A stretch of 64,000 nucleotides of DNA from an uncultured Chloroflexia bacterium (GTDB lineage Bacteria > Chloroflexota > Ktedonobacteria > Ktedonobacterales > Ktedonobacteraceae): the NCBI GenBank assembly GCA_963802635.1, contig CAWDJJ010000003.1, forward strand, positions 636,553-700,552. Reading direction: 5' to 3'. A program made the translations under genes and the position numbers. Of this stretch, positions 5,329 to 55,629 are shown in pieces; within the stretch, counting starts at the first letter, position 1; every line of letters begins with the position of its first letter. The notes beneath the pieces were generated by a model. It worked only from the letters and a program-made list of their open reading frames with translations. It did no database searches and was not told where the DNA came from.

Positions 5329-5985
5329 ATGATTAGCCCTTCACCTACTCGACCACCAGCGACACAACCGCCAGAGGAAGTCAAAATAGTACGGACAGCA
5401 ACCACAAGAGTCAGACCCGGGCAAACGCCAACAGCCCTTACGATTAAAGCTATTTTCCGTCCTATCATTAAAGTGTTTTACTATATCATTACGGCAATCA
5501 AGAAGTACAAACTCATCACGTTGGGGGTAATTGTACTCCTTCTGGCGAGTATCGCAGCTACAACTTTTCTCACCACTGGCCAGCTTCCGCTAGGCATCGC
5601 CAGTGATCCCTTCAATTTCCACATCAATGGTGGCGATGGAGGCGGTAGCACGGTCAAAAACTGGCTGTATGCGTTGCGCTCGGGGAATGTGACTCAGTTA
5701 GAGTACCTGGATAAAAATATCTCATCGCCACCAGATGTCAGTACACTCGTTAGCACCTATAGCCAGGCAAAATCGAACTTCACCTGGAAAGCTATACATG
5801 TCGTGGGAGCCTATCAAGAGTCTGATACGACGGTGGACAGCTTCATACAGGTTGATCTCTCTGCCGATGGACCAGGCGGACCCACGACAGGATACCTGTT
5901 GTGGCATTTCGTTACCTACACGTCGGGAACAAACAATATTCTCGTAGAAGTGGCGCTTGTAGATAATCGCCCTAATGAGTCATAG
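5329..5985 (+). CDS. hypothetical membrane-anchored protein
   Basis: 218 aa; single TM 'LITLGVIVLLLASIAATTFL' after a Pro-rich N-terminus. Confidence 0.45.
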   Translation: MISPSPTRPPATQPPEEVKIVRTATTRVRPGQTPTALTIKAIFRPIIKVFYYIITAIKKYKLITLGVIVLLLASIAATTFLTTGQLPLGIASDPFNFHINGGDGGGSTVKNWLYALRSGNVTQLEYLDKNISSPPDVSTLVSTYSQAKSNFTWKAIHVVGAYQESDTTVDSFIQVDLSADGPGGPTTGYLLWHFVTYTSGTNNILVEVALVDNRPNES

Positions 5986-5993
5986 CTGCACGT

Positions 5994-6026
5994 TATATTG
6001 CCTTGCATTCAGATGCATATGGGTAT
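5994..6026. repeat. MITE-family minimal copy (reverse orientation)
   Basis: tatattgccttgcattcagatgcatatgggtat. Confidence 0.55.
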
Positions 6027-12898: not shown

Positions 12899-13050
12899 TA
12901 ATACCCATAGGCATTCAGAAACGCAACTTTCGTTCCTCTTGGACTGTCAGAAACGCCACTGCCGTGGCTAGCCTTCGGCTCATCTGACAGAGCGGAGGTT
13001 GCTAGAACTGTGCTGAGGCACATTTCTCATCTGAATGCAAGGCAATATAA
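12899..13050 (+). repeat. MITE-family full copy (~150 bp)
   Basis: tacccataggcattcagaaacgc...ctcatctgacagagcg...catttctcatctgaatgcaaggcaatata with internal palindromes. Confidence 0.7.
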
Positions 13051-18607: not shown

Positions 18608-21064
18608 CTATTTTCCTATTGCACGCTCTACATTGACAACATTTTTCACCTGGCGCAGACGACGTAAAATACGTTCAATCTGGTCGATGACACCCGTCTC
18701 CGCCGCAATTTCCAGCGTGGCTGTAATCACGGCTTTCTGTAAAGAAGCATTGGTGGTAGAGGTAACAGCCGCCATATTGATACTCGAATCAGCGACCACA
18801 GCCGCCACATCGCGCAACAAGCCCGCACGATCATGCGCAACCAGCGTTATCGGCACCAGATAGTACTCCGGCTTTATACGTAACCAGTCGAGGTCTACCA
18901 GCGCACTGGTGTTATCACGGTAACGGCGTAATGTACGACAGTCGGCGCGATGTACCAGCATACCCTTGCCCGGTGAAAAAAAGCCCACTATCGCATCCCC
19001 CAGGATAGGACAACAACATTGCGCCAGTTTCACCAGACGCACAATCGCGCCATCTTTGTCCTGAAGATAATCATTTTCATACTCATCAGGATGGTTGTCA
19101 TTTTCGGCGTTGACCTCATCTCGTTTTGGCAAGAGCGGAAGCAGATGCTCTAGCACCTGCTCGATGAGCAAATCTTCACGACCAAGTGCGATGTAGATGT
19201 CGTCACGCGTGGCATACTTTTTGAAGGTTGTACTGGCCGCCACGCTGTCCGTGCAGAGATGTAGCAGTAGATCCTCAACAACATCACAGATACCACCCTG
19301 ACCAGTAGCCTTCAAAGCCAGATCCAGCCGCTCACGGCCCAATTGCAAATTGATCTCACGTTCATAGGTTTTAAGATAACGCCGAATTTTGTTACGAGCC
19401 GCCGCCGTCCGCGCAAAAGAGAGCCAGTCACGCGTCGGATGCACCGTACGATTCACCATGATATCGACAATCTCGCCGCCTTTCAATTCATAGTCGAGTG
19501 GCACGAGACGAGTGACCAAGCGGCCACTCTCATCCTGATTGGTAATAATACGCGCACCGGCACAATGATCACCCAGATCGGTATGAATACGGTAAGCCAT
19601 ATCCAATGGCGTCGAACCACGCGGCAGATCCTTTACATCACCTTTCGGCGTAAACACAAAGATCTGCTCTTGAAAGATATCCCCTTTGACTGCCTCAACA
19701 AATTCATCTGCACTGCGCTGTGGCAATTCACGCTGCCACTCGCGTAGCTGCTCGATCCAGGCCACCATCTCACGATACGAGAGACGCCAACTGCTCGGCA
19801 CAGGCTCTTTTTTGCTACTCCCCGCCTTTTCGTCCTTGCCCACTCGCTCCTTCAGATACCAGTAGCTGGCAATGCCATAATCAGCAGTGCGCTGCATATC
19901 ATAGGTGCGGATCTGGATCTCTGCCAGACGGTCCTGCAAACAAAAAACAGTCGTATGCAACGACTGATAGCCATTTAATTTAGGAGTGGCAATAAAATCT
20001 TTAATCCGACCGTCCTTCGGTCGCCACAACGCGTGGATATGTCCTAAAGACAGGTAGCATTCATAATCGCTATCAACCAGGATACGGAAGGAAACAAGAT
20101 CGTGGATCTGGCTGAGTTCGTTGCTACTTGCCAGCGGCATATCCTCCAACTTGCGATTGATGCTAGCCAGGTGCTTACGCCACGCCAGCACATCGGCATG
20201 AATACCGGCTCGCTCCATCTCCTCACGCAGAATATGACACACCTCGTCCACAAACGGCTGGCGTTTCTGTACTTCATCCTCAACTTGCCGGGCCAGGCGC
20301 GTATATTTTTCAGGTTCGAGATAGCTAAAGACGAGATCCTCTAACTCAGCCTGCGCAATATACATACCCAGACGACAGGCCAACGGAGCATAAATCTCAC
20401 TGGTCTCACGCGACGTATTTTGTTGCTGGGCAGGCGACATAGCACTGAGCGTTCGCATATTATGCAAGCGATCAGCAATCTTGAGCACAACCACACGCGG
20501 ATCTTCAGCCATCGCCAGTAGCATTTTACGCACAGTTTCAATGCGCTGACGTCGCTTGTCAACCAGGGACGGCGGCGCGGGGAGTAGTGGGTCTGCACAC
20601 TGTGCTTCGGAGGAGGCAGCTTTTCTCGCTGTCGTAGCAGGCTTGCCAGCCAACGCATCAAACTTCGTCACCCCATCAACAATGTTAGCAACCACCGCAC
20701 CAAACTGCTCGCGTAAGTTGTCAAGGGAAAAATCAGTATCTTCAACCACATCATGCAACAGCGCTGCGACGATACCGTCCGCATCAATGCGCATGACAGC
20801 TAGCAGGAAGGCTACCTCTAAGGGATGCTGGATGTATGGCTCACCAGAACGGCGCACAACCCCAACATGTGCCTGATCGGCCAGATCATAGGCACACTGA
20901 ATTTTCTCCATATCGTGCGGAGCAAGATACTGACCTGTTTCGGCCAGCAGGTCCTCAAGAGTCATTTGCGAAGGAGACAAGTTCGCCTCCGATGCTGTCG
21001 CCGTTCTCATCAAAGGTATAGCGGACCCAGACTGATCAGCAACTTTTTCGAAATTGGTAGCCAT
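18608..21064 (-). CDS. rel: bifunctional Rel/SpoT-type (p)ppGpp synthetase/hydrolase
   Basis: intact HD motifs 'QHPLEVA...LLHDVVEDT', 'RLHNMRT'; synthetase 'NGYQSLHTTV', 'EIQIRTYDMQ'; TGS, ACT; track start is a TTG at 21079, first ATG at 21064. Confidence 0.85.
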   Translation of the reverse strand: MATNFEKVADQSGSAIPLMRTATASEANLSPSQMTLEDLLAETGQYLAPHDMEKIQCAYDLADQAHVGVVRRSGEPYIQHPLEVAFLLAVMRIDADGIVAALLHDVVEDTDFSLDNLREQFGAVVANIVDGVTKFDALAGKPATTARKAASSEAQCADPLLPAPPSLVDKRRQRIETVRKMLLAMAEDPRVVVLKIADRLHNMRTLSAMSPAQQQNTSRETSEIYAPLACRLGMYIAQAELEDLVFSYLEPEKYTRLARQVEDEVQKRQPFVDEVCHILREEMERAGIHADVLAWRKHLASINRKLEDMPLASSNELSQIHDLVSFRILVDSDYECYLSLGHIHALWRPKDGRIKDFIATPKLNGYQSLHTTVFCLQDRLAEIQIRTYDMQRTADYGIASYWYLKERVGKDEKAGSSKKEPVPSSWRLSYREMVAWIEQLREWQRELPQRSADEFVEAVKGDIFQEQIFVFTPKGDVKDLPRGSTPLDMAYRIHTDLGDHCAGARIITNQDESGRLVTRLVPLDYELKGGEIVDIMVNRTVHPTRDWLSFARTAAARNKIRRYLKTYEREINLQLGRERLDLALKATGQGGICDVVEDLLLHLCTDSVAASTTFKKYATRDDIYIALGREDLLIEQVLEHLLPLLPKRDEVNAENDNHPDEYENDYLQDKDGAIVRLVKLAQCCCPILGDAIVGFFSPGKGMLVHRADCRTLRRYRDNTSALVDLDWLRIKPEYYLVPITLVAHDRAGLLRDVAAVVADSSINMAAVTSTTNASLQKAVITATLEIAAETGVIDQIERILRRLRQVKNVVNVERAIGK

Positions 21065-21370
21065 ACTGAATACCTGCAACTACATTCTGTACCATCTGTC
21101 CGCGCCTGATCGGTTCTCCCCACGCTTTCGGCACTACAATTACAAGTATATACCCATCCTGGACAAAACAAATGTTACCACTCTATTATAAAGAGCAAAA
21201 TTTGACTGTCAAGCGGATACTGTTTGCCATCCCAAATCCCAAAATGCTTGAGGAAGATAAAACCAGGTACGCAATGGAGGTACATACCATGTACATTCGT
21301 CTATAAGAGGAAACGCAAACGCAGCCTGCATTATTCCACGAGAGAAAGCAACCAGGCTGGCTCCATAATA

Positions 21371-21600
21371 TACCCATAGGCATTCAGAAACGCGTGCTTA
21401 ATTCCGCCTGGCAACGAAGCTGACGCTTCTACTGCTGCGCAGTCAGCCAGGCGGATCAGCAACTGCCGTGGCTCCTCGTAGGCTGTCAGAAACGAGGCTG
21501 TCGCCGCTAGCTTCGCTCATGTGGCGGAGCGGCGTGCGCCCTGACGGCTCATCTGACAGAGCGGCGTGCGCTTCGCTCATCTGAATGTAAGGCAATATAT
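21371..21600 (+). repeat. MITE-family full copy (~230 bp)
   Basis: same termini as the 12.9 kb copy with a longer internal palindromic region. Confidence 0.7.
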
Positions 21601-21751
21601 ACGACAAAGGCAAAGCCAAGAACACACCATGGCTTAGCCTCTTTTTTTGTTCTGATGGGAAATTCCTGTAGGCGCTCCCTGTTATTGAACTGGGTATATG
21701 CTCGTAGGAAAAGCACAACTCAACACAGCAGACAAACGCGAACAGACCATG

Positions 21752-22060
21752 TTAACTGCGCGCGACGCTGCGTACCTTATCATAGCAAGGACTACAGTAG
21801 ACCGGGCGGTCATTCTTAGGCAAGAATGGGACCTGAGTCTCAGTACCACATTCAGCACAAATCACTGTATGCATTTCTCGCGGTGCACGCTCTCGACTAC
21901 CGGAACCACCAGCCGAATTACGGCGATTGGCTCGGCAGGAAGGGCAGCGACCAGGCTGATTCATCAGACCTTTTTGCTGGTAGAACTCTTGTTCTCCGGC
22001 AGTGAACACGAAGTCAACTCCGCACTCACGGCACTTTAGGGTTTTGTCATCGAAGCTCAA
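21752..22060 (-). CDS. zinc-ribbon (zf-trcl-type) protein
   Basis: two CxxC...CxxC units ('CRECG...CPSCR', 'CAECG...CSPCY'); 'FVFTAGEQEFYQQKG' matches the probable zinc-binding domain family. Confidence 0.6.
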   Translation of the reverse strand: MSFDDKTLKCRECGVDFVFTAGEQEFYQQKGLMNQPGRCPSCRANRRNSAGGSGSRERAPREMHTVICAECGTETQVPFLPKNDRPVYCSPCYDKVRSVARS

Positions 22061-22265
22061 CTAGGGACCTCCTTGTGATATGTTGGTAATCCTCAGGGCC
22101 ATATCCTAGCAGATGTCACCAGTTTTTTCCCCTACCAGCGTGGGATTTTATACCCTGGACGAGCACTGTATGCGAGACCGAGATTGGATACCGGTGGAAA
22201 GCATACACTATCTTTTAAGGATTTGCAAGCGTTCTTATGACAATTTCCGACTATGCTACATATTT

Positions 22266-22604
22266 TTATGTATCTTTTATATTATCTTTATACGATTCTG
22301 ACTTGACGTTTATGAGACAATAACCAAAAGGAATAATGGGCTGTAAAAATCTGGTAGCTCTCCACTTCAATCGCTCAATAAAAGCCGTATTGAACTCGGT
22401 ACATCCTTTTGTCTTCAAGAGAAGCTCTTTTGCTTTCTCACTTGTGCCCTTTGTCAGTTTTCTTGTGATCTCCACGACCCGCTTTTCCTTGCTATGCTTG
22501 ATGACCGTGGTAATGCAGAGATACAGCAGGTCTCTGGACGCTGGCTTTTTTTCAAGCTCCCCCTCCTTTTTCACCAGTTCGTGGAGAGCTACCGAAGTCG
22601 GCAC
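22266..22604 (-). pseudogene. transposase C-terminal remnant (DDE 'ER' region)
   Basis: 'NTAFIERLKWRATRFLQPIIPFGYCLINVKS' resembles IS1-like transposase C-termini; no N-terminal catalytic part. Confidence 0.3.
22300..22356. repeat. 57-bp IS-end-like sequence, copy A
   Basis: gacttgacgtttatgagacaataaccaaaaggaataatgggctgtaaaaatctggta, about 90% identical to copy B. Confidence 0.7.
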
Positions 22605-22620
22605 TCCGCTTTTTTAGCTG

Positions 22621-23595
22621 CTACTTTGCCGCTGGTGACAGCAACCTTAACTCCACCCCTGATTGGGGTCCGACGGTGGATTTCCTTCTGTCGGCGGCGG
22701 CGCTCCCCCTGGCTGCGGCCCGTAGTTCGGATGCAGCGGCACTCCCCCTGGCTGCGGCCCGTAGTTCGGATACTGCCCATAGTTCGGATGCTGCTGCACT
22801 CCCCCTTGCTGTTGCACGTAGTTCGGATGCTGCTGCACTCCCCCTTGCAATATCTGCTTTTGGTCGTAATTCATATTTTGCCTCCTCTGCACTTCTAGCT
22901 GATACGGCGCGTTGTGCTGATTTTGCTGCAATTGTATATTTTGATTTTTTTTGCATCTTTCGTAGCTCTCGTAACGCTTGGAGCGCTGCTTTTTGCTCCG
23001 GCGTTCCCCTGTGCCCTATGGCTCTGATTTGCTGGGAAAGCCTAGCCTCCTCAGGATGTTCCCTCTTCATCCGCTCTACGCCTCCTTTCCCTGAGTAGGA
23101 GGACATGTACAAGGCTTCAGCCGCCAGGTGCGCTTCCGCCAGTTGGATACCATCGATCTGTATAGGCAAAACTGCTGGCCTACTTCGTAGCTCTCGTAAC
23201 GCTTGGAACGCTGCTTTTTGCTCCGGTGTTCCCCTGTGCCCTACGGCTTTGAGTTCCTGGAAACGCCTGGCCTCCACAGGATAGTCCCTCTCCATCTGAT
23301 CTACGCCTCCTTTCCCTGAGTAGGAGACGTTGTACAAGTTTTCAGCGAGCAGATGATCTTCCGTTAGTTGGACATTTGTGATGTCTATTTTTGGTCTTCT
23401 CCCCGATCCAGAGGAAGTCTGGCCCGGTGCAGGGCCTGATGGGAGGTCTCCGGACCTCACCGCTTGCGTCACATCCAAACCACCAGCAGAACTCCACCCA
23501 GCGTTCGGCGAGGTTTCTCCCTCTACGTATTCTGGACCCCAATATGGGTTCCACGGCAGCGATTGGTTCCCCGGCGAGTCGCCGCGTCCTGACAT
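22621..23595 (-). CDS. hypothetical protein with internal duplications (frame uncertain in 3' repeats)
   Basis: RBS aaaggag before ATG 23595; two ~75-aa repeats ('YSGKGGV...HRGTPEQKAA(F/L)QALRELR'); an alternative frame gives a PNYGPQPGG tail. Confidence 0.35.
   Translation of the reverse strand: MSGRGDSPGNQSLPWNPYWGPEYVEGETSPNAGWSSAGGLDVTQAVRSGDLPSGPAPGQTSSGSGRRPKIDITNVQLTEDHLLAENLYNVSYSGKGGVDQMERDYPVEARRFQELKAVGHRGTPEQKAAFQALRELRSRPAVLPIQIDGIQLAEAHLAAEALYMSSYSGKGGVERMKREHPEEARLSQQIRAIGHRGTPEQKAALQALRELRKMQKKSKYTIAAKSAQRAVSARSAEEAKYELRPKADIARGSAAASELRATARGSAAASELWAVSELRAAARGSAAASELRAAARGSAAADRRKSTVGPQSGVELRLLSPAAK
22700..22860. repeat. about 40-bp imperfect tandem repeats (about 4 units)
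   Basis: ctccccctggctgcggcccgtagttcggatgc(a/t)gc... repeated. Confidence 0.65.
22961..23410. repeat. 225-bp tandem duplication (2 units)
   Basis: units begin cgtagctctcgtaacgcttgga at 22961 and 23186. Confidence 0.7.
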
Positions 23596-23609
23596 CTTGT
23601 GCTCCTTTC

Positions 23610-24185
23610 TCAATGACCTTGTTCATCCTGAGTGGTGTTCCACCTGATGGTCTCCTTTTCCGATCCTCCTCTTCTTCTCATATTATACCAGCTCTTTCTT
23701 GCATCAACGGCTGCTGAGCGCTTCTTCTCCGAAAACTGACCCTCCCTTGCCCATTTTCTCCCACAACTGCTCTTCGGCATCTCCGCCACGCACCCGCCTC
23801 GTATCATCTCTTCTCCGGCGACAGGAATGCGGCTCTTCTGGGCCGGTCCCCTTGAGGTCGGCACGCACGCGCACCAAGCGCAAAGAGATGGACTCTTTTT
23901 TCGTCGCTGTCCAGCCCAGGATAATGCCAGACTTGCCACACCATGGTGGATACCCCCATATCCGTAGTCTTGGCTGCCCCATCGGTCGCCCAAGCGCTCC
24001 ACCCAATGCTTCGCAGAGTCGTAGGACCATCCATCAGCCGCATCATCCGTCGGCAACACCCTGGATGCTACCGGAGCCACTGGCTCCTCGATCACGCCTG
24101 CCGTGGCTGGCTCCTCGGCAACCCTATGCTTGGAGCCAGGAACATCGCTGGCTTCCTCCTCTGGCTCCTGGTGATGCTTCACCAT
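23610..24185 (-). CDS. hypothetical protein (possibly decayed; 3' half may be UTR)
   Basis: acidic plausible N-terminal half; C-terminal half is purine-rich basic sequence that looks like the 5'UTR/RBS of the downstream gene; alternative frames also open. Confidence 0.25.
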   Translation of the reverse strand: MVKHHQEPEEEASDVPGSKHRVAEEPATAGVIEEPVAPVASRVLPTDDAADGWSYDSAKHWVERLGDRWGSQDYGYGGIHHGVASLALSWAGQRRKKSPSLCAWCACVPTSRGPAQKSRIPVAGEEMIRGGCVAEMPKSSCGRKWAREGQFSEKKRSAAVDARKSWYNMRRRGGSEKETIRWNTTQDEQGH

Positions 24186-24365
24186 AAACAGCCTCCGACG
24201 ATCTTCGGCGGCGGCGATATCTCGTGCCAGGTGCTCATCTCCCCAAAGGGTCCTGCGGCCCTGTCAGCCACGAAGCGGCTCAACATCGTACAGAAGAGGG
24301 GCATCTTGTTATCGCCGTCTGGGTGCCGCCGCTCTGGCCCAATCACCTTCGTCTCCTGCGCGACC

Positions 24366-24422
24366 GACTTGACGTTTATGAGATAATAACCAATAAGAAT
24401 AATGGGCTGTAAAAATCTAGTA
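24366..24422. repeat. 57-bp IS-end-like sequence, copy B
   Basis: direct repeat of copy A just upstream of tgt; minus-strand translation '...RFLQPIILIGYYLINVKS'. Confidence 0.7.
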
Positions 24423-24476
24423 AAACGCTTTCTACAGGCCCATTGCACATTTTTAGTGAACATATGTTTGGGGTTC

Positions 24477-25658
24477 ATGTCAACATTTTCCTTTACCATC
24501 GACGCCGATAGCTCGACGAGCTGGGCACGAGCGGGCACTATCCAGACCCCTCATGGCACGATTCAGACGCCCATTTTCATGCCGGTAGGGACGCAAGCAA
24601 CAGTCAAGAGTGTCGCGCCTGAAGAGCTACACGCGGCAGGGGTACAGATTATCCTTGCCAATACCTATCATCTCATGCTCAGACCAGGTTCTGAACTGAT
24701 TGCGTCCTTTGGCGGACTGCACTCATTTATGCACTGGGACGGTCCTATCCTCACCGATAGCGGGGGCTTCCAGGTCTGGAGCCTGGGACATCTACGCAAG
24801 CTAAGCAAGGAAGGCGTAGTCTTCAAATCACATCTTGACGGCTCACAACACATCTTGACACCCGAGCGTGTGATGCAAATCGAAGCAGAACTGGGCGCAG
24901 ATATTATCCTGCCGCTCGACATTTGCGCGCCTTATCCCTGTAGCACACATGAGGCTCAGCAAGCCATGGAGTGGACCCATCATTGGGAAGAACGCGCCCT
25001 GCTAGCCAAAGAACAGTATAATCCTTCTCAGAGCTTATTCGGGATCATTCAAGGAGCCTTTGAGCCAGCACTGCGCCAGCAAAGTGCGCAAGTCATCGCC
25101 AGTATGCCATTTCCAGGGCTTTCCATCGGCGGACTCTCAGTGGGCGAACCAAAAGAAATGATGTGGGAGATGCTGCGCGCTGTCACGCCAGTACTGCCAC
25201 GCCACAAGCCACGTCATTTACTAGGAGTTGGCTCACCCGAAGATCTGGTAGAGGGTGTGGGCCTGGGTATGGATATGTTTGATTGTGTTTTACCAACACG
25301 CGTGGCACGTCACGGCGGACTCTTCACCGCCAATGGACGCGTCAGCATCAAAAACGCTCGTTTTCGCAGCGAGCATGGACCCATAGAGGCAGGCTGTGAT
25401 TGCTACACGTGCCAGCATTACAGCGCCGCGTACGTCCACCATCTCGCGCGCACAGAAGAGCAGCTGTATTATCGTCTAGGTAGCATTCATAATATTCGCT
25501 TCATGTTGCGCCTCGCCAGTCAGTTGCGGGAAGCGATTATCGCAGATCGCTACAGTGACTTCCGCAGCGAATTTCAGGCCCGCTATGTTCCGGCATCGGA
25601 GCAGGTACGCGAAGCACAACGCGAGAAGTGGAAAGCAGCGAGAGAACGTCCAACATAG
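24477..25658 (+). CDS. tgt: queuine tRNA-ribosyltransferase
   Basis: 'TPIFMPVGTQATVK', 'LGVGSPEDL', zinc site 'CDCYTCQHYS...H'; the track N-terminus (MGCKNLV...) is the repeat and is rejected. Confidence 0.85.
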   Translation: MSTFSFTIDADSSTSWARAGTIQTPHGTIQTPIFMPVGTQATVKSVAPEELHAAGVQIILANTYHLMLRPGSELIASFGGLHSFMHWDGPILTDSGGFQVWSLGHLRKLSKEGVVFKSHLDGSQHILTPERVMQIEAELGADIILPLDICAPYPCSTHEAQQAMEWTHHWEERALLAKEQYNPSQSLFGIIQGAFEPALRQQSAQVIASMPFPGLSIGGLSVGEPKEMMWEMLRAVTPVLPRHKPRHLLGVGSPEDLVEGVGLGMDMFDCVLPTRVARHGGLFTANGRVSIKNARFRSEHGPIEAGCDCYTCQHYSAAYVHHLARTEEQLYYRLGSIHNIRFMLRLASQLREAIIADRYSDFRSEFQARYVPASEQVREAQREKWKAARERPT

Positions 25659-25681
25659 CAAGCATATCGCAAGGAACAAGT

Positions 25682-26503
25682 ATGCAAAAGGCACCATACC
25701 GCTTTATCAACACAGGAGTACAAGACGCAGCCCTCAATATGGCTATCGATGAAGCTATACTCCGTCACCACCTCAAAGACGCAGTTCCACCAACTTTGCG
25801 GGTATTCCGCTGGTCGCAACCGGCGATCTCGCTGGGACGATTTCAAAACGTCAAGCGCGAAATCGCCGTCGATGTCTGCCAACAACAAGGCATCGCGCTT
25901 GTACGCCGTCCCACTGGAGGAAGAGCTGTCTATCACCGAGACGAATTTACCTACAGCATCGTCATTAGCAAGCACAATGGCATCCCCTCAGGAGTCGTCG
26001 CCGCATACGCCTACCTCTGCCAGGGATTGCTTGTCGCGCTTGCCAGCCTGGGAATACAGGCCGAAATCAGTGATGAACATGTAAGTAAAAATCCCTCAGC
26101 AGCTTGCTTCGCATCATCAACGCAGGCTGACGTGATCAGCAATAATTTTAAGCTGGTAGGTAGCGCTCAGGTATGGAAGCAAGATGGACTGCTCCAACAA
26201 GGATCATTGCCGCTAGATGATTGCTCAGCAGAATTCTTTAGCATGCTGCGCTTTGCTAGCACAGAAGAGCGCCAGGCGGCCCTGAGCCTCTACCAGCAGA
26301 AAACCGCCCCATTACATGCCTTTGCCCCGACAGCCACATGGGATACAGCAGCTCAGGCATTTCAAAATGGCTTTAGCACACTTCTGCAAAGGCAATTTGC
26401 GCCGGGCGAATTGAGTACATCAGAGTGGGAACTGGCCCGGCAACTTGTGGAGCAGAAATACAGCGAGCTAACGTGGAGTAAAGAACATATCACATTAGCC
26501 TGA
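25682..26503 (+). CDS. lipoate-protein ligase / octanoyltransferase family protein (LplA/LipM-like catalytic domain)
   Basis: 'RRPTGGRAVYHRDEFTYSIV' BPL_LplA_LipB motif; RBS aaggaacaag. Confidence 0.7.
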   Translation: MQKAPYRFINTGVQDAALNMAIDEAILRHHLKDAVPPTLRVFRWSQPAISLGRFQNVKREIAVDVCQQQGIALVRRPTGGRAVYHRDEFTYSIVISKHNGIPSGVVAAYAYLCQGLLVALASLGIQAEISDEHVSKNPSAACFASSTQADVISNNFKLVGSAQVWKQDGLLQQGSLPLDDCSAEFFSMLRFASTEERQAALSLYQQKTAPLHAFAPTATWDTAAQAFQNGFSTLLQRQFAPGELSTSEWELARQLVEQKYSELTWSKEHITLA

Positions 26504-26697
26504 TGTGCTTATACCCACATTGCATGCAGGCAATCAGTGCGGTACAATAGGCCCGATAGAGATACATCATAGCAGCAGAAGAGGGTGAAAGCAATGGATA
26601 TAAGAAAATCTATCACGCTCTCCCTGCGAAACGTCTTTTGCGGTCCTGATAAGCAAGGAAGCAGCATTTATAGCATTGAGTTAAGGAGTATCTGGGC

Positions 26698-27329
26698 GTG
26701 AGCATATCTGTCGAAATGGCACGAAGTATCCTGGAAGCCAGCAAACAACGTGCCAGAGAACTACGCAGCCCCGTAAGCATCGCCATCGTAGACGCAGGAG
26801 GGCATCTGGTCCTTTTCGAGCGCATGATGGCCCCCTATGGTTGGGCAACAGGCAATATCAGCCTTGCCAAAGCAAGTACAGTGTGATGTTTAACCAGTCC
26901 ACAGACGCAGTTGCGCAATGGGGTGCGGGTATCCCAGGCTTCGCCGCCAGTCTGGCGGCGATGACCAACGGACAATTCATCATGGCGGCTGGCGGCTGGC
27001 CCATTCGCGTCAACGGTATCACCATTGGCGGTATTGGAGTAAGTGGAGGCAACGCACCTGGCCGCGATGATGAGATCGCATGTGCAGGACTTGCCGTGGT
27101 AGAAGCATTGAGCGCACCCATCCCAACACAACCAGCACAAGTAGCTGTCAGAGCAGGCTATGAGCAGAACAGTGCATCACTCGCGGGCAATAACGATAGG
27201 GTTTCACGCCCGCAGGATCTTCCCCCCATGACCCAGCACTTGCCAGTAGATAATAATGATCCTTACAGTGCTTTTGGTATGCCTACCTCTAGCCAATCAA
27301 ACGAGAACCGTTCAGGAGACCAACTATGA
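26698..27329 (+). pseudogene. DUF336 (GlcG/HbpS-like) protein with apparent frameshift near 26880
   Basis: GTG start with RBS aaggag; 'PVSIAIVDAGGHLVLFERM...ISLAKASTV*' then continues in another frame 'MFNQSTDAV...GGWPIRVNGITIGGIGVSGG'. Confidence 0.45.
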
Positions 27330-28126
27330 GTCAGGAATATAGCACAACACCAAGCAAAAAGATACGGCGTACACGCTCACAGCGCAATCGTCCCGTACTC
27401 GTCACCGACGAGGAAAACAAAACACTTGCACAGACTAGCCCCGCAGTAGACACAACGGCAGTAGAAACGCCGCCAGCAGTAGAGGAAGATCCTGTAGAAG
27501 TAGTTGCAGAAACACCAAAACGGCAGTCGCGACTCCCCAATTTCTTCTCACGCGTTGATAAAAGCGAGCAAGAGACAAACCCTAACCAGGAAGATGTTGT
27601 GCAAGCACGCCTCGCACGAGCCACGCGAAAGCAAGCTGGCAATAATGCAGCAGCCGTAGCAAAGGAAGAGACAGCGACCAGTGATGGAAAAGTCACAAAG
27701 GCCAGGGCTACGCAACCGCCGAAGCTGTTTAAGTCCCGCCATTTTCTCGGCTTTGCAATTTACCTGCTCGGCGCGGAATTCCTCTTGCCCTACGAGACCA
27801 ACGCTCTCGCCAAGTTGGGATTAAACAAACCGTTATTCACCCTCCCACTTTTTGGCGCGACGGCCACGGTTAGTACATCATTTCTGTTCAATATTTTTAC
27901 GCTGATCCTCTTACTGTATATTCTGGTCAAAATGGACCTGCTGCCAAGCAGCCTTGCTGGAAGCGGTGCCGCGCAGAGGAACGCTAAAGCCACGCAGAGC
28001 AGGAATAATCAGCAAGAGCCAGGAGTGAAACAAACTCCACCGTCAACGAGACAGGGCGTACAGGGCACAGACGATGATCTCTACCAGGAGTATCGCGCCA
28101 ACCAGAGACGCGACAAGAAACGCTAA
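27326..28126 (+). CDS. hypothetical membrane protein
   Basis: 266 aa; disordered basic N-terminus, two or three TM helices, Gln/Arg-rich tail. Confidence 0.45.
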   Translation: MSQEYSTTPSKKIRRTRSQRNRPVLVTDEENKTLAQTSPAVDTTAVETPPAVEEDPVEVVAETPKRQSRLPNFFSRVDKSEQETNPNQEDVVQARLARATRKQAGNNAAAVAKEETATSDGKVTKARATQPPKLFKSRHFLGFAIYLLGAEFLLPYETNALAKLGLNKPLFTLPLFGATATVSTSFLFNIFTLILLLYILVKMDLLPSSLAGSGAAQRNAKATQSRNNQQEPGVKQTPPSTRQGVQGTDDDLYQEYRANQRRDKKR

Positions 28127-28146
28127 TGCCCGATAACCATTCCCTC

Positions 28147-28176
28147 TTGACAGAGGTAGCATCAACCCTTTATAAT
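28147..28176 (+). promoter_or_regulatory. sigma-70-type promoter (TTGACA-18 bp-TATAAT)
   Basis: ttgaca at 28147-52, tataat at 28171-76; about 250 bp upstream of DAHP synthase. Confidence 0.45.
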
Positions 28177-28231
28177 TACTCACACAGGCTGGAGTAAGGC
28201 TCCAGTAATACGACACTTATGGAAAATATCA

Positions 28232-28306
28232 ATGCTCAGCGACCAGACAGACAAACAAATTAGTTTCCAATATAGCTTTTATTATTGGTTTAGCCCTCCA
28301 GCATGA
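28232..28306 (+). CDS. aromatic-rich leader peptide (MLSDQTDKQISFQYSFYYWFSPPA)
   Basis: 24-aa ORF between the promoter and an intrinsic terminator; 7 of 9 consecutive codons are Phe/Tyr/Trp; weak SD gga. Confidence 0.4.
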   Translation: MLSDQTDKQISFQYSFYYWFSPPA

Positions 28307-28356
28307 TGGTGGGCCCTTTGGGCTGAGCAAAATTTGACCACCAGCGTGCTGGAGAG

Positions 28357-28388
28357 AGCAGAGGACAAATCCTCTGCTTTTTTGTTTC
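28357..28388 (+). terminator. leader (attenuator) terminator agcagagg-acaaat-cctctgct + TTTTTTGTTT
   Basis: 8-bp stem and T-run inside the 5' leader of the DAHP synthase gene, before its RBS. Confidence 0.5.
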
Positions 28389-28423
28389 CCCAAATTGAGT
28401 CAACAGTAGAGAGGATGACGTTC

Positions 28424-29482
28424 ATGATTATCACACTTCACAACCAGGCGACCAGCGACGAACGAGCGCAATTGATGACACTACTCTGCCGCATCACCGG
28501 CAGTCAATGTCCAATCACCACGACTGTCATAAGCGAGCGCGAAGTAATTGCGCTCGATAGCAACCTGATTAATAGCCAGGCACAAAGCGCATTAGAAGCG
28601 TTAAACGCCGTTGATAGCATCCTTAGCATCAAAACTGCCTACCAGCTAGTCAGCCGCACGTTCCAGGCAAGCACAAGTAGCATTGCCGTAGGTAATGCGC
28701 GCGACTGTAATCCGGTGACTATTGGCAGTGGGGCACCTGTGATGATGGCAGGACCTTGCGCCGTCGAGAGCCGGGAACAGTTGCTTGCCACTGCACGCGC
28801 CGTCAAACAGGCTGGCGCGCAAATCTTGCGCGGAGGAGCCTTCAAACCTCGTACATCGCCCTACCAGTTCCAGGGACTCGGCGTTGAAGGGCTGCACATG
28901 CTGGCGGAAGCACGCGAGATTACGGGACTACCCGTGATTACCGAAGTCATGGAACCCGCTATGGTAGAGCCTGTAGCGCAGTTCGCGGACATATTACAGA
29001 TCGGTTCGCGCAATATGCAGAATTTCCCGCTGCTATCGACGGTAGGTAGACATAGTAAGCAGCTTCCAGTGCTACTCAAGCGTGGATTGTCAGCCACCAT
29101 CGACGAATGGTTATTGGCGGCTGAATACATTGCCGCGGCAGGCAACCCTAACATCATCCTCTGCGAACGCGGCATACGCAGCTATGATCCCCAGACGCGC
29201 AATGTGCTTGACCTGACCTGTGTGCCATTGCTCCACGAATTAACCCACTTGCCGATTATTGTTGACCCAAGCCATGCTACTGGTCGCCGCGAATTAGTGC
29301 CAGCCATGTCGCGCGCCAGCATTGCCGCTGAAGCCGATGGCCTGATCATCGAGACCCATCTTGATCCCAACACAGCCTTATGCGACGGGCGACAATCGAT
29401 TACGCCCGAGCAACTAGCAAAAATCGTGCGCGAAACCAGGCTTTTCACACGCATGATGCACGAGGAGACACGTGTGGCATAA
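28424..29482 (+). CDS. aroG: 3-deoxy-7-phosphoheptulonate (DAHP) synthase, type I-beta with N-terminal ferredoxin-like regulatory domain
   Basis: collinear with Thermotoga-type DAH7PS: 'MIITLH' N-domain, 'AGPCAVES', '[19 protein letters not shown]', 'KRG', 'ILCERGIR', 'VDPSH'; the track TTG start at 28334 is rejected. Confidence 0.8.
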
Positions 29483-29605
29483 GCGCTGTAAGATTCCCAG
29501 GCAACAGCTATCGACTCACAACACACACTTATGCTATACTCTGCGTAGGTAGAAAGAGTATTTTCTATGACGGTGGGGGATAGACCAAGGCTTTGAGGAG
29601 ACACT

Positions 29606-30179
29606 ATGCCAACACGAATTATTATTGCCGATGACGAAGCCATTCAGCGCATGGACTTAAAAGATGTGCTGACCAAGCAGGGATACCTCGTAATTGGGGA
29701 GGCGGGCGACGGCCAAAGTGCCATCAATCTGGCCCGCGAACTGCGACCGGATCTGCTTATTATGGACATTCGTATGCCCGATATGGATGGCATTGCCGCC
29801 GCCGAAACACTTACGCAGGAAAAGATCGCACCAGTATTGTTGCTCACGGCCTTCGGGGACCAGCAACTCGTGGAACGAGCAAAAGAGGCAGGCGTGGTTA
29901 ATTACATTGTGAAACCACTGCGTGAGAGCGAAGTTACGCCTGCTATCGAAGTTACACTGGCTCGCTACAGCGAGTTCCGCGCTCTGGAGGAAGAGAATCG
30001 CAGCCTCTCAGATGAAACTCGAGACACGCAAAGTCGTCGAACGAGCAAAAGGACTCTTGATGGAAAAGCAAGGACTCAGCGAACAGGAAGCTTTCCGTAA
30101 GATCCAGAAGGCAAGCATGAACAATCGTAAGTCTATGCGCGAGGTAGCTGAAGCTATCTTGTTGACGAACGAAATGTAA
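29606..30179 (+). CDS. two-component response regulator with ANTAR RNA-binding output domain (apparent +1 frameshift between REC and ANTAR)
   Basis: REC 'IIIADDE...DLLIMDIRMPDMDG...LLLTAF'; ANTAR 'LETRKVVERAKGLLMEKQGLSEQEAFRKIQKASMNNRKSMREVAEAIL' lies in the next frame from about 30030. Confidence 0.55.
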
Positions 30180-34025: not shown

Positions 34026-34412
34026 ATATTGCCTTGCATGGGTGAGCGTCAGATTTTTGCAAACGGGTAGGGGCGGCGCTTGCCTCCGCCCCACAGGCCG
34101 TCCCAGGCACATCCAGGGCGCACGCGAGGTCCGCCCCTACCCGTTTGCTCCTGCCTCTACTCAACCGGTCAGGTGCTCCAGTGCAAAAAATTGACGGCCA
34201 CCCGCCTTGCATTCAGATGAGAACTGTGCTGCCGCACATTTCTAGCAACCTCCGCTCTGTCAGATGAGTCGAAGGCTAGAGGCGGTAGCCTCGTTTCTGA
34301 CAGACCAAGAGGGACGAGAGTTGCTGATCCGCCTGACTGACTGCGCAGCAGTAGCTGCGTCAGCAGCGTTGTCAGGTGGAACAAGAACGCATTTCTGAAT
34401 GCATATGGGTAT
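34026..34412 (-). repeat. compound MITE-family region (reverse orientation) with embedded 16-bp perfect inverted repeat
   Basis: tatattgccttgcat... ; aaacgggtaggggcgg (34061-76) / ccgcccctacccgttt (34131-46); then ccttgcattcagatgag...ctgtcagatgag...gcatatgggtat. Confidence 0.6.
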
Positions 34413-37741: not shown

Positions 37742-37810
37742 TACTCGTGCCAATTCTTTGCGCTGCTTCTAGCTTGATCAGGTACAGTGAATTGGCAGGC
37801 GCTCTCGTCT

Positions 37811-37877
37811 ATACCCATATGCATTCAGATGAGAAATATGGTCTGGCACATTTCTCATCTGAGTGCATGGCAATATA
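37811..37877 (+). repeat. MITE-family short copy
   Basis: tacccatatgcattcagatgagaaatatggtctggcacatttctcatctgagtgcatggcaatatat. Confidence 0.6.
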
Positions 37878-37963
37878 TGCGTTATTCCGATGCCGTTGAA
37901 ATGTAGATACTCTCTTGCTGAAACACAAAGCTGGCTTTCTACGCCGCGCGCAATACCAGCAGG

Positions 37964-38710: not shown

Positions 38711-38752
38711 GCCTTGCATTCATACCCATAGGCATTCAGATGAGAAGTGTGA
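38711..38752. repeat. MITE-family fragment
   Basis: gccttgcattcatacccataggcattcagatgagaagtgtgag. Confidence 0.5.
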
Positions 38753-44452: not shown

Positions 44453-44684
44453 TTTTTCTCTCCTGCTCAACCTGCATTATCCCGTATGCAGGTTGAGTAC
44501 TTTTACGCAAAGCAGAAATAGACCCTAGAATTGACTAGTCAAATAGCCTTTATTCTTTCATACTTCTTTATAAGAGCTCTTTTGACATATACATCTATGC
44601 CCGAAGTGACACATATTTCTGTCACTCCTTACGACAACATTCTTAGGAACAAGGAGGTAGTACACAGTTTTTTCTGTCCCTGTT

Positions 44685-44848
44685 GCCTTGCATTCAGATG
44701 AGCCAAAGGCTAACCACCTCCGCTCTGTCAAATGAACCGAAGGTTAGAACGAGTAGAGTTTCCTGATCCTCCTGACCGATTGACTGATCGATCACGCAAC
44801 ATTGTTGTTGGGTGGAACAAGAACACGCTTCTGAATGTCTATGGCTAT
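44685..44848 (-). repeat. MITE-family full copy (reverse orientation)
   Basis: gccttgcattcagatgag...ctgtcaaatgaacc...cttctgaatgtctatggctat. Confidence 0.65.
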
Positions 44849-47957: not shown

Positions 47958-48040
47958 ATACCCATAGGCATTCAGAAACGCCACTCTCGTGGCTAGCACT
48001 GTGCTGCGGCACATTGCTCATCTGAATGCAAGGCAATATA
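47958..48040 (+). repeat. MITE-family copy (~83 bp)
   Basis: atacccataggcattcagaaacgccactctcgtggctagcactgtgctgcggcacattgctcatctgaatgcaaggcaatata. Confidence 0.7.
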
Positions 48041-55527: not shown

Positions 55528-55550
55528 AAAAATGGCCTGGCGATGTGAAA

Positions 55551-55629
55551 TACCCACAGACATTCAGAAACGCAACTCTCGTTGCTAGAAATATGCTGTG
55601 GCATATTTCTCATCTGAATGCAAGGCAAC
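55551..55629 (+). repeat. MITE-family copy (~80 bp)
   Basis: tacccacagacattcagaaacgcaactctcgttgctagaaatatgctgtggcatatttctcatctgaatgcaaggcaaca. Confidence 0.7.

Follow-up and report, generated by a model that had tools for sequence, protein, structure and literature searches.

Template switching and microhomology-mediated break-induced replication give rise to templated insertions with a flanking duplication; the cases on record come mainly from amplification systems of E. coli and from eukaryotes, and the mechanism is not known to have been documented in Chloroflexi. The locus considered here belongs to an uncultured Chloroflexia bacterium (GCA_963802635.1) and lies on contig CAWDJJ010000003.1, of which positions 636,553–700,552 were analysed (64,000 nucleotides, referred to below as the window). 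In this DNA, the spacer between a treble-clef zinc-ribbon gene and tgt, the gene for tRNA-guanine transglycosylase (TGT), contains a 2,009-bp segment with one copy of a 57-nt direct repeat at each end. The reading preferred here, with a probability of about 0.6, is that the segment is accessory DNA inserted once at this spacer, with duplication of 57 bp of the host target. Other described systems also come close to such an arrangement. Decayed integrative elements of the type known as CIMEs (cis-mobilizable elements) retain their attachment sites, attL and attR, but lose their integration genes (PMC5704250), and the insertion sequences (ISs) IS1549 and IS1634 are associated with direct repeats of 8 to 514 bp (PMC2266710).

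The locus resembles each of these systems in part. With CIMEs and strain-specific islets it shares the form of a short accessory segment that a close relative lacks, with direct repeats of some tens of bp at its limits, no integration genes of its own, and a content of orphan genes and IS debris. Its likeness to IS1549 and IS1634 lies in an insertion flanked by a target duplication far longer than the usual 2–14 bp. Template-switch insertions have in common with it an arbitrary-ended segment, copied in with the target duplicated on both sides, for which neither a recombinase nor element ends are needed.

An empty site in a close relative

The zinc-ribbon gene (21752–22060, minus strand; profile matches to zf_Tbcl and zf_Tbcl_2) is a native flank of the locus and is divergent from tgt (24477–25658, plus strand), positions 22061–24476 making up the entire spacer between the two. 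The 57-nt direct repeats lie at 22300–22356 (copy 1) and 24366–24422 (copy 2), the coordinates at which the first-pass annotation of this DNA, made from the letters alone, had placed them with about 90% identity; the value obtained here is 93% (53/57), for a start-to-start distance of 2066 nt, and the four differences fall at repeat positions 19, 29, 31 and 54. There is no third copy in the 64-kb window at three mismatches or fewer (0 expected by chance), and no homology past the 57 nt on either side, where Smith–Waterman scores lie inside the shuffle distribution. A more extended homology, hinted at by a MAFFT alignment, was dropped after this comparison.

The nature of the repeat is revealed by the sole relative compared, the 1.85-Mb contig CAVTLG010000002.1 (L001) from a metagenome-assembled genome of an uncultured Chloroflexia bacterium, which is about 90% identical to the window. 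L001 is collinear with window positions 20067–30097, about 10 kb, at 89–93% identity (blastn), and has the order zinc-ribbon gene, spacer with one 57-mer, tgt. Positions 5941–6701 of L001 align with window 22352–21597 and positions 5888–5993 with window 24471–24366 (blastn); in a junction alignment, these two spacer blocks overlap on a single 57-mer, window 22357–24365 is missing and tgt (L001 4611–5797) comes directly after the spacer. The outer flanks of the repeats, to the left of copy 1 on the zinc-ribbon side and to the right of copy 2 upstream of tgt, are native, and the inner flanks belong to the insert, delimited at 22357–24365 by blastn, the junction alignment and composition. Since L001 carries one 57-mer with native flanks and no insert, the 57-mer is duplicated host spacer sequence, that is, native target DNA rather than the end of a mobile element.

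The wider searches bear on the same point. A 21-mer from the 57-mer, AATAATGGGCTGTAAAAATCT, has a single exact match, in L001, among 185,579 species-representative genomes, and is absent from 2.9 million viral contigs. When both halves of the 57-mer were scanned against the viral contigs, one gave no match and the other a chance 18-mer without extension. The first-pass annotation had suggested a variable locus, which the uninterrupted site in a relative about 90% identical bears out, and had described the 57-mer as IS-end-like, a description that does not survive its single occurrence in the empty site as native spacer and the uniqueness of its 21-mer core among species-representative genomes. 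As possible counter-evidence it had named a 57-mer lying within a conserved gene: the sequence is indeed conserved native DNA and not an IS end, but it is intergenic and not part of a gene. It has no obvious inverted repeats within it (repeat search), a promoter/terminator scan gave nothing within the 57-mer, such that a promoter role is unsupported, and an Rfam scan of 20500–26000 (E up to 5) gave two chance-level matches only, with no riboswitch or leader in the 57-mer.

The repeat copies also carry some information on age. The L001 57-mer differs from copy 1 at 3/57 positions and from copy 2 at 3/57; at the four sites that separate the copies, it agrees with copy 1 at 19 and 31 and with copy 2 at 29 and 54, position 57 being private to L001. 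Each copy therefore has two private substitutions with respect to the other copy and the relative, and the surrounding spacer has diverged by 7–8% between the window and L001. As two changes per copy are close to this divergence, the duplication would be roughly as old as the split of the window and L001 lineages.

Gene content of the insert

The insert differs from its surroundings in composition, with a GC content of 55.8%, as against 50.2% for the window; in tetranucleotide content it is the most atypical of all 2-kb windows, although two other regions come close. All credible coding within it is on the minus strand, as judged by AT skew and a codon-usage scan. From left to right, it comprises a transposase fragment and two open reading frames (ORFs), referred to as genes B and A.

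The left end falls within a probable IS1-like DDE transposase gene, of which an internal fragment of about 83 codons, truncated at both ends, remains on the minus strand at 22365–22613 (73% identity over 52 aa, E 8e-19). The ORF called there is 112 aa long (22266–22604). Neither the fragment nor this ORF has a Pfam or NCBIfam match, but a search of 5.8 billion proteins identified seven relatives of the ORF with 60–88% identity (P0009–P0015), all of which are transposase-type fragments without a family name. The block common to these relatives reads ...LCIATVIKH..KRVVEITRK..RGT.EKAKELL..TKG..EFNTAFIERLNGTFRERLASLTRKCRHAA...YNFC.PHQEL..., and the profile of P0009–P0015 aligns with the C-terminal part of a Deinococcus peraridilitoris protein annotated as an IS1 transposase, WP_015231507 (hhalign 92.5%, E 4.8e-7; 41% identity over 64 columns). 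WP_015231507 itself scores 21.2 bits on DDE_Tnp_IS1, for which the cut-off is 24.1. In the longer members of P0009–P0015 there are DDE_Tnp_IS240 and rve_3 signals, below threshold but located where they would be expected. The C-terminal block of single-ORF IS1-family transposases such as WP_015231507, VIKH..RVVE....G......L.....NT..(I/V)ER.NGT.R, is also present in the window fragment, which differs from them in its length of only about 83 codons and its lack of family matches.

In the window, transposase homology stops at ...NTAFIERL(K), at position 22365, 8 nt from copy 1, whereas true homologues go on with NGTFRERLASLTRKCRHAA... for at least 100 further residues; the upstream end of the fragment is cut off at the 3' end of gene B. 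The rest of the 112-aa ORF (ATRFLQPIIPFGYCLINVKS...) is chance read-through into the host spacer, the ORF passing through copy 2 contains nothing of a transposase, and the 112-aa and 119-aa ORFs are both read-through artefacts. No remaining parts of the transposase were found in the window or in L001, and the fragment is a dead internal piece. The first-pass annotation was thus correct in recognizing a decayed transposase remnant in the segment, given the relationship of the 112-aa ORF to P0009–P0015 and, through them, to an IS1 transposase; its further claim that the peptide encoded by the 57-mer (ATRFLQPII...INVKS) is a transposase C-terminus is contradicted by the end of the homology 8 nt before the repeat and the different continuation in the homologues.

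The closest long relative of the fragment, P0010, is itself a remnant, on metagenome contigs L006/L007 (6001–6561). It adjoins an ISL3 transposase gene and two tyrosine-recombinase genes, and lies directly beside queE-like, queD-like, queC and Vut_1 transporter genes. The queE-like, queD-like and queC genes at that locus share the queuosine pathway with tgt, which is probably a coincidence.

Gene B (22621–23613, minus strand) is an intact ORF of 330 codons (P0001; 324 aa in the source annotation), supported by family homology and a structure model. Its predicted product starts with a disordered N-terminus, followed by two four-helix repeats of 75 residues each and a low-complexity tail rich in Ala, Arg, Ser and Glu. 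A word-indexed protein search with gene B returned only gene B itself, but HMMER (phmmer), run over 1.84 billion representatives, found relatives P0003–P0007 with E values of 1.5e-33 to 5.6e-14, the best being P0003 (E 1.5e-33, 47% identity). In proteins of this family, a 75-residue unit occurs one to three times in tandem, with the repeat motif ..QPT.AHL.AE.LY...Y.G.GG.E.M..E.P..A.L......A...RGT.EQK.A...LR. and 14 invariant alignment columns. An AlphaFold model based on a six-sequence alignment gives two four-helix units with predicted local distance difference test (pLDDT) values above 90, together with the disordered N-terminus and a long helical tail; a Foldseek comparison of this model with the PDB gave no significant fold match. 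No relatives were found in viral contigs. Gene B defines a helical-repeat family that appears small and is uncharacterised. Its members were found in the Chloroflexia-related window, in soil metagenomes and in one large isolate-type genome, recurrently beside IS debris: P0003 adjoins IS66 transposase fragments on soil metagenome contigs, and P0005 (GCA_003967515.1) sits among DDE_5, IS256-type and ISL3 transposase genes and an integrase gene. The repeat domain alone is common to the window and the P0003 and P0005 loci.

The first-pass annotation had listed a 225-bp tandem duplication, tandem repeats of about 40 bp and overlapping ORFs on both strands, and all of these features are present. The duplication, which it had counted as part of the decay, is in fact a 75-codon domain repeat of a conserved protein family: the 225-nt tandem repeat at 22959–23372 (minus strand; 1.8 copies, 85% identical) encodes the two 75-residue domain copies of gene B. 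The dN/dS ratio (nonsynonymous to synonymous substitution rates) between the two domain repeats is about 1.4, a value that includes the linkers and is uninformative. In P0003, P0004 and P0005, the tandem 75-residue repeats are closer to each other within a protein than to the repeats of other members, which suggests independent duplication or concerted evolution in each lineage.

The tail of gene B is encoded by further tandem repeats with periods of 39, 18 and 57 nt (22694–22848, minus strand), for which two minus-strand frames are open, one giving a RGSAAASELRAAA tail and the other PNYGPQPGG. This ambiguity had been pointed out in the first-pass annotation and can be addressed with the 39-nt units. 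Of their seven variable sites, six are third codon positions when read in the 330-codon frame and second positions when read in the PNYG frame, a bias that favours the RGSAAASELRAAA frame. The test separates the two minus-strand frames only, as the antisense plus-strand frame has the same third positions; this antisense frame over the tail is taken as a shadow because it is antisense to a homology-supported domain. A run of eight A residues on the coding strand of gene B (22945–22952; T8 on the plus strand) is a place at which both minus-strand frames are open, and a change of one base within it, such as the deletion of one A, would swap the gene B tail from an Ala/Arg/Ser-rich to a Gln/Asn/Pro/Gly/Tyr-rich sequence. 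A frameshift at this run joining gene B to the Q/N/PNYG frame was considered and rejected on the grounds that the variable sites are at position 3 of the existing frame. With a T7 run at 22546–22552, the A8 run is one of two of the window's A/T homopolymers of at least 7 nt that lie inside the 2-kb insert, and it may mark either a hot spot of sequencing errors or a site of slippage.

Gene A (23610–24185, minus strand) is an orphan ORF of 191 codons, the sole database match of which is itself. In the codon-usage scan, its coding signal is strong only over the first 60 or so codons (24010–24185), after which other frames score better, and the gene may be decayed. Genes A and B are both singleton protein clusters, each known from one contig.

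Nothing suggests that the insert is still mobile, since it lacks a recombinase and terminal inverted repeats and is known in one copy. Pfam and NCBIfam revealed neither a recombinase nor a transposase domain in any insert ORF, and PHROGs and PADLOC gave no meaningful match for any of these ORFs, and thus no phage or defence family. A repeat search and direct reading of the ends revealed no terminal inverted repeats, phage and plasmid collections had no blastn match to the segment as a whole, and no second copy exists in the window or among catalogued proteins clustered at 90% identity.

How the segment may have entered

That the relative has an empty site, that the 57-mer is of native origin and which genes the insert carries are results of the comparison, whereas the mechanism of duplication is inferred. 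Tentatively, and as a weakly held view, the insertion may have been illegitimate rather than mediated by a transposase or integrase. Such an event is favoured because the ends of the insert are arbitrary, one of them lying in a broken gene 8 nt from the repeat, and because there are no inverted termini, no recombinase and no second copy. By one route, a stalled replication end would switch template, copy about 2 kb of foreign or accessory DNA and resume 57 bp upstream of its point of departure; by another, a break with long staggered ends would capture a fragment and then be filled in. Both routes would duplicate the target and leave arbitrary insert ends. The DNA so acquired would begin, at its left end, in the middle of a dead IS1-like transposase gene, and continue with the intact gene B and then the orphan gene A. 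The insertion may have been tolerated, as a matter of speculation, because each of the divergent genes still has this upstream sequence beside it after the duplication.

Several points weigh against this account. No donor locus was found within the 64-kb window with which the junctions could be compared for microhomology, the signature of template switching, and in this the insert also departs from described template-switch insertions. Direct repeats of about 50–60 bp are also of the usual size for attL/attR cores. The uniqueness of the 57-mer refers to an exact 21-mer search of species representatives, the organism's own genome having been scanned within 64 kb, and the single-copy claim refers to protein clustering at 90% identity. 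In L001, the 57-mer alternates between the two copies in a 1-2-1-2 mosaic, a pattern that is neither that of a simple crossover product nor decisive for any scenario. With one relative, moreover, the segment could be ancestral and have been lost in L001 by recombination between the repeats; whichever the polarity, an insertion with a 57-bp duplication happened once.

An illegitimate or template-switch insertion is preferred to the remnant of an att-integrated element, and this in turn to transposition with a long duplication. The att-based explanation, which is somewhat unlikely, supposes a site-specifically integrated prophage, integrative and conjugative element (ICE) or integrative and mobilizable element (IME), with the 57-mers as attL and attR and a 57-bp attB in the spacer upstream of tgt. 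The integrase and most of the cargo would then have been lost through internal deletions, and what is left would be a CIME-like relic of 2 kb, perhaps excisable in trans. The repeats do have a typical att-core length and surround a compositionally atypical segment missing from the empty site of the relative, as in a CIME; decayed elements that keep attL/attR without integration genes are an established concept (PMC5704250), and orphan or accessory genes with an IS fragment are the usual cargo of islands. However, there is no integrase in the segment or in the stretch of about 10 kb of the window aligned with the otherwise collinear L001, and no known cognate integrase or attP. The site is an intergenic spacer and not a tRNA gene, tmRNA gene or gene 3' end; there being no tRNA or tmRNA genes in the window, it is not a tRNA-type att site. 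At the left att, the element would end 8 nt from a mid-codon break in a transposase gene, which is odd for a natural element. In addition, the core 21-mer is absent from the viral contigs and all other representative genomes, and no inverted repeats are obvious within the 57-mer.

A transposition event that made an exceptionally long target-site duplication, as in IS1549 or IS1634, is decidedly less probable. A transposon carrying genes A and B would have duplicated at least 57 bp, and later deletions would have taken the element ends and most of the transposase, possibly trimming the duplication to 57 bp. A transposase remnant does lie at one insert end, long and variable duplications are documented for some ISs (PMC2266710), and 2.0 kb is within the IS size range. 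Against this, the insert has neither an intact transposase nor terminal inverted repeats, and the remnant is IS1-like, not IS1634-like, with no DDE_Tnp_1 in any insert ORF and only sub-threshold IS240 and rve_3 signals. At least 100 codons and the IS end would have to be deleted exactly to the duplication boundary, and neither the window nor the protein clusters contain further copies. It is slightly less likely again that the segment is a non-autonomous mobile cassette that moves into and out of the 57-bp site by means of a recombinase supplied in trans, or the product of a mode of transposition that makes 57-bp duplications.

The view put forward in the first-pass annotation, that the 57-mers are IS ends encoding transposase C-termini and that the segment was left by an IS-mediated rearrangement, draws on two true observations, namely that both copies are open on the minus strand with the same peptide and that copy 1 is directly preceded, in the same frame, by a genuine transposase fragment, but it is very improbable given the single 57-mer between native flanks in L001, the absence of this peptide from transposase homologues, the sequence upstream of copy 2, which is antisense to the tgt 5' region and not transposase-like, the uniqueness of the 21-mer core in the genome collection, and the lack of an intact transposase gene, of an inverted repeat pairing the insert ends and of further copies in the window. 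A chimeric join at a short repeat in a metagenome-assembled genome is equally improbable. The assembly does appear to be environmental and the window proteins are known only from one 1.23-Mb contig, but an assembler would have produced identical repeats, and here four positions separate the copies, each with flanks of its own; both junctions are contained in one long contig, and collinearity of the flanks with L001 extends over about 10 kb.

The start of tgt, a nearby dispersed element and significance

The insert has consequences for the annotation of tgt, the product of which is a full-length match to TGT models above curated cut-offs (PF01702, 503 bits; TIGR00430, 496 bits). The longest tgt ORF opens at an ATG at 24402, inside repeat copy 2, but the TGT models align only from residue 34–42 of this ORF, similarity to L001 in the tgt region begins at 24472 (blastn), and the matching upstream ATG in L001 opens a separate short ORF that is closed by a TGA before tgt. 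For these three reasons, the true start of tgt is the ATG at 24477 (MSTFSFTIDADS...), only 54 nt from copy 2, in agreement with the earlier warning that copy 2 gives tgt a false N-terminus. The region upstream of tgt is rich in indels between the window and L001: at L001 5797–5888, opposite window 24471/24472, about 90 additional bp, a TTGACG motif among them, separate the 57-mer region of L001 from its tgt start codon.

The window also contains an abundant dispersed element resembling a miniature inverted-repeat transposable element (MITE), with conserved inverted termini ATACCCATAGGCATTCAGAAAC ... CTCATCTGAATGCAAGGCAATATA, a core GCATTCAGA / TCTGAATGC and an internal length of about 70 to 230 bp. 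Copies are located at 21364–21593, 12901–13049, 34204–34412, 37810–37878, 44683–44848, 47958–48040 and 55550–55628, and end fragments at 2108–2131, 5994–6015 and 38722–38740. The copy at 21364–21593 is missing in L001 and has an imperfect flanking direct repeat of about 10 bp, CAT(A/C)ATATAC; it thus represents a second insertion polymorphism, 0.7 kb from the 2-kb insert.

The main value of these results lies in a corrected annotation and interpretation of the locus, with the tgt start at 24477, read-through ORFs recognized as such, an apparent duplication identified as a domain repeat, and presumed IS ends identified as host sequence. The locus is a strain- or lineage-specific islet of a familiar kind, with accessory DNA and IS debris between direct repeats; its less usual feature is a 57-bp target duplication around an insert without element ends. 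If a cassette, or a mode of transposition with 57-bp duplications, were the true explanation, this would be a new type of small integrative element in Chloroflexi, carrying a helical-repeat protein. If more cases of this kind were to be found in the repeat-rich genomes of Chloroflexi, they would point to a recombinase-independent entry of accessory DNA into housekeeping loci.

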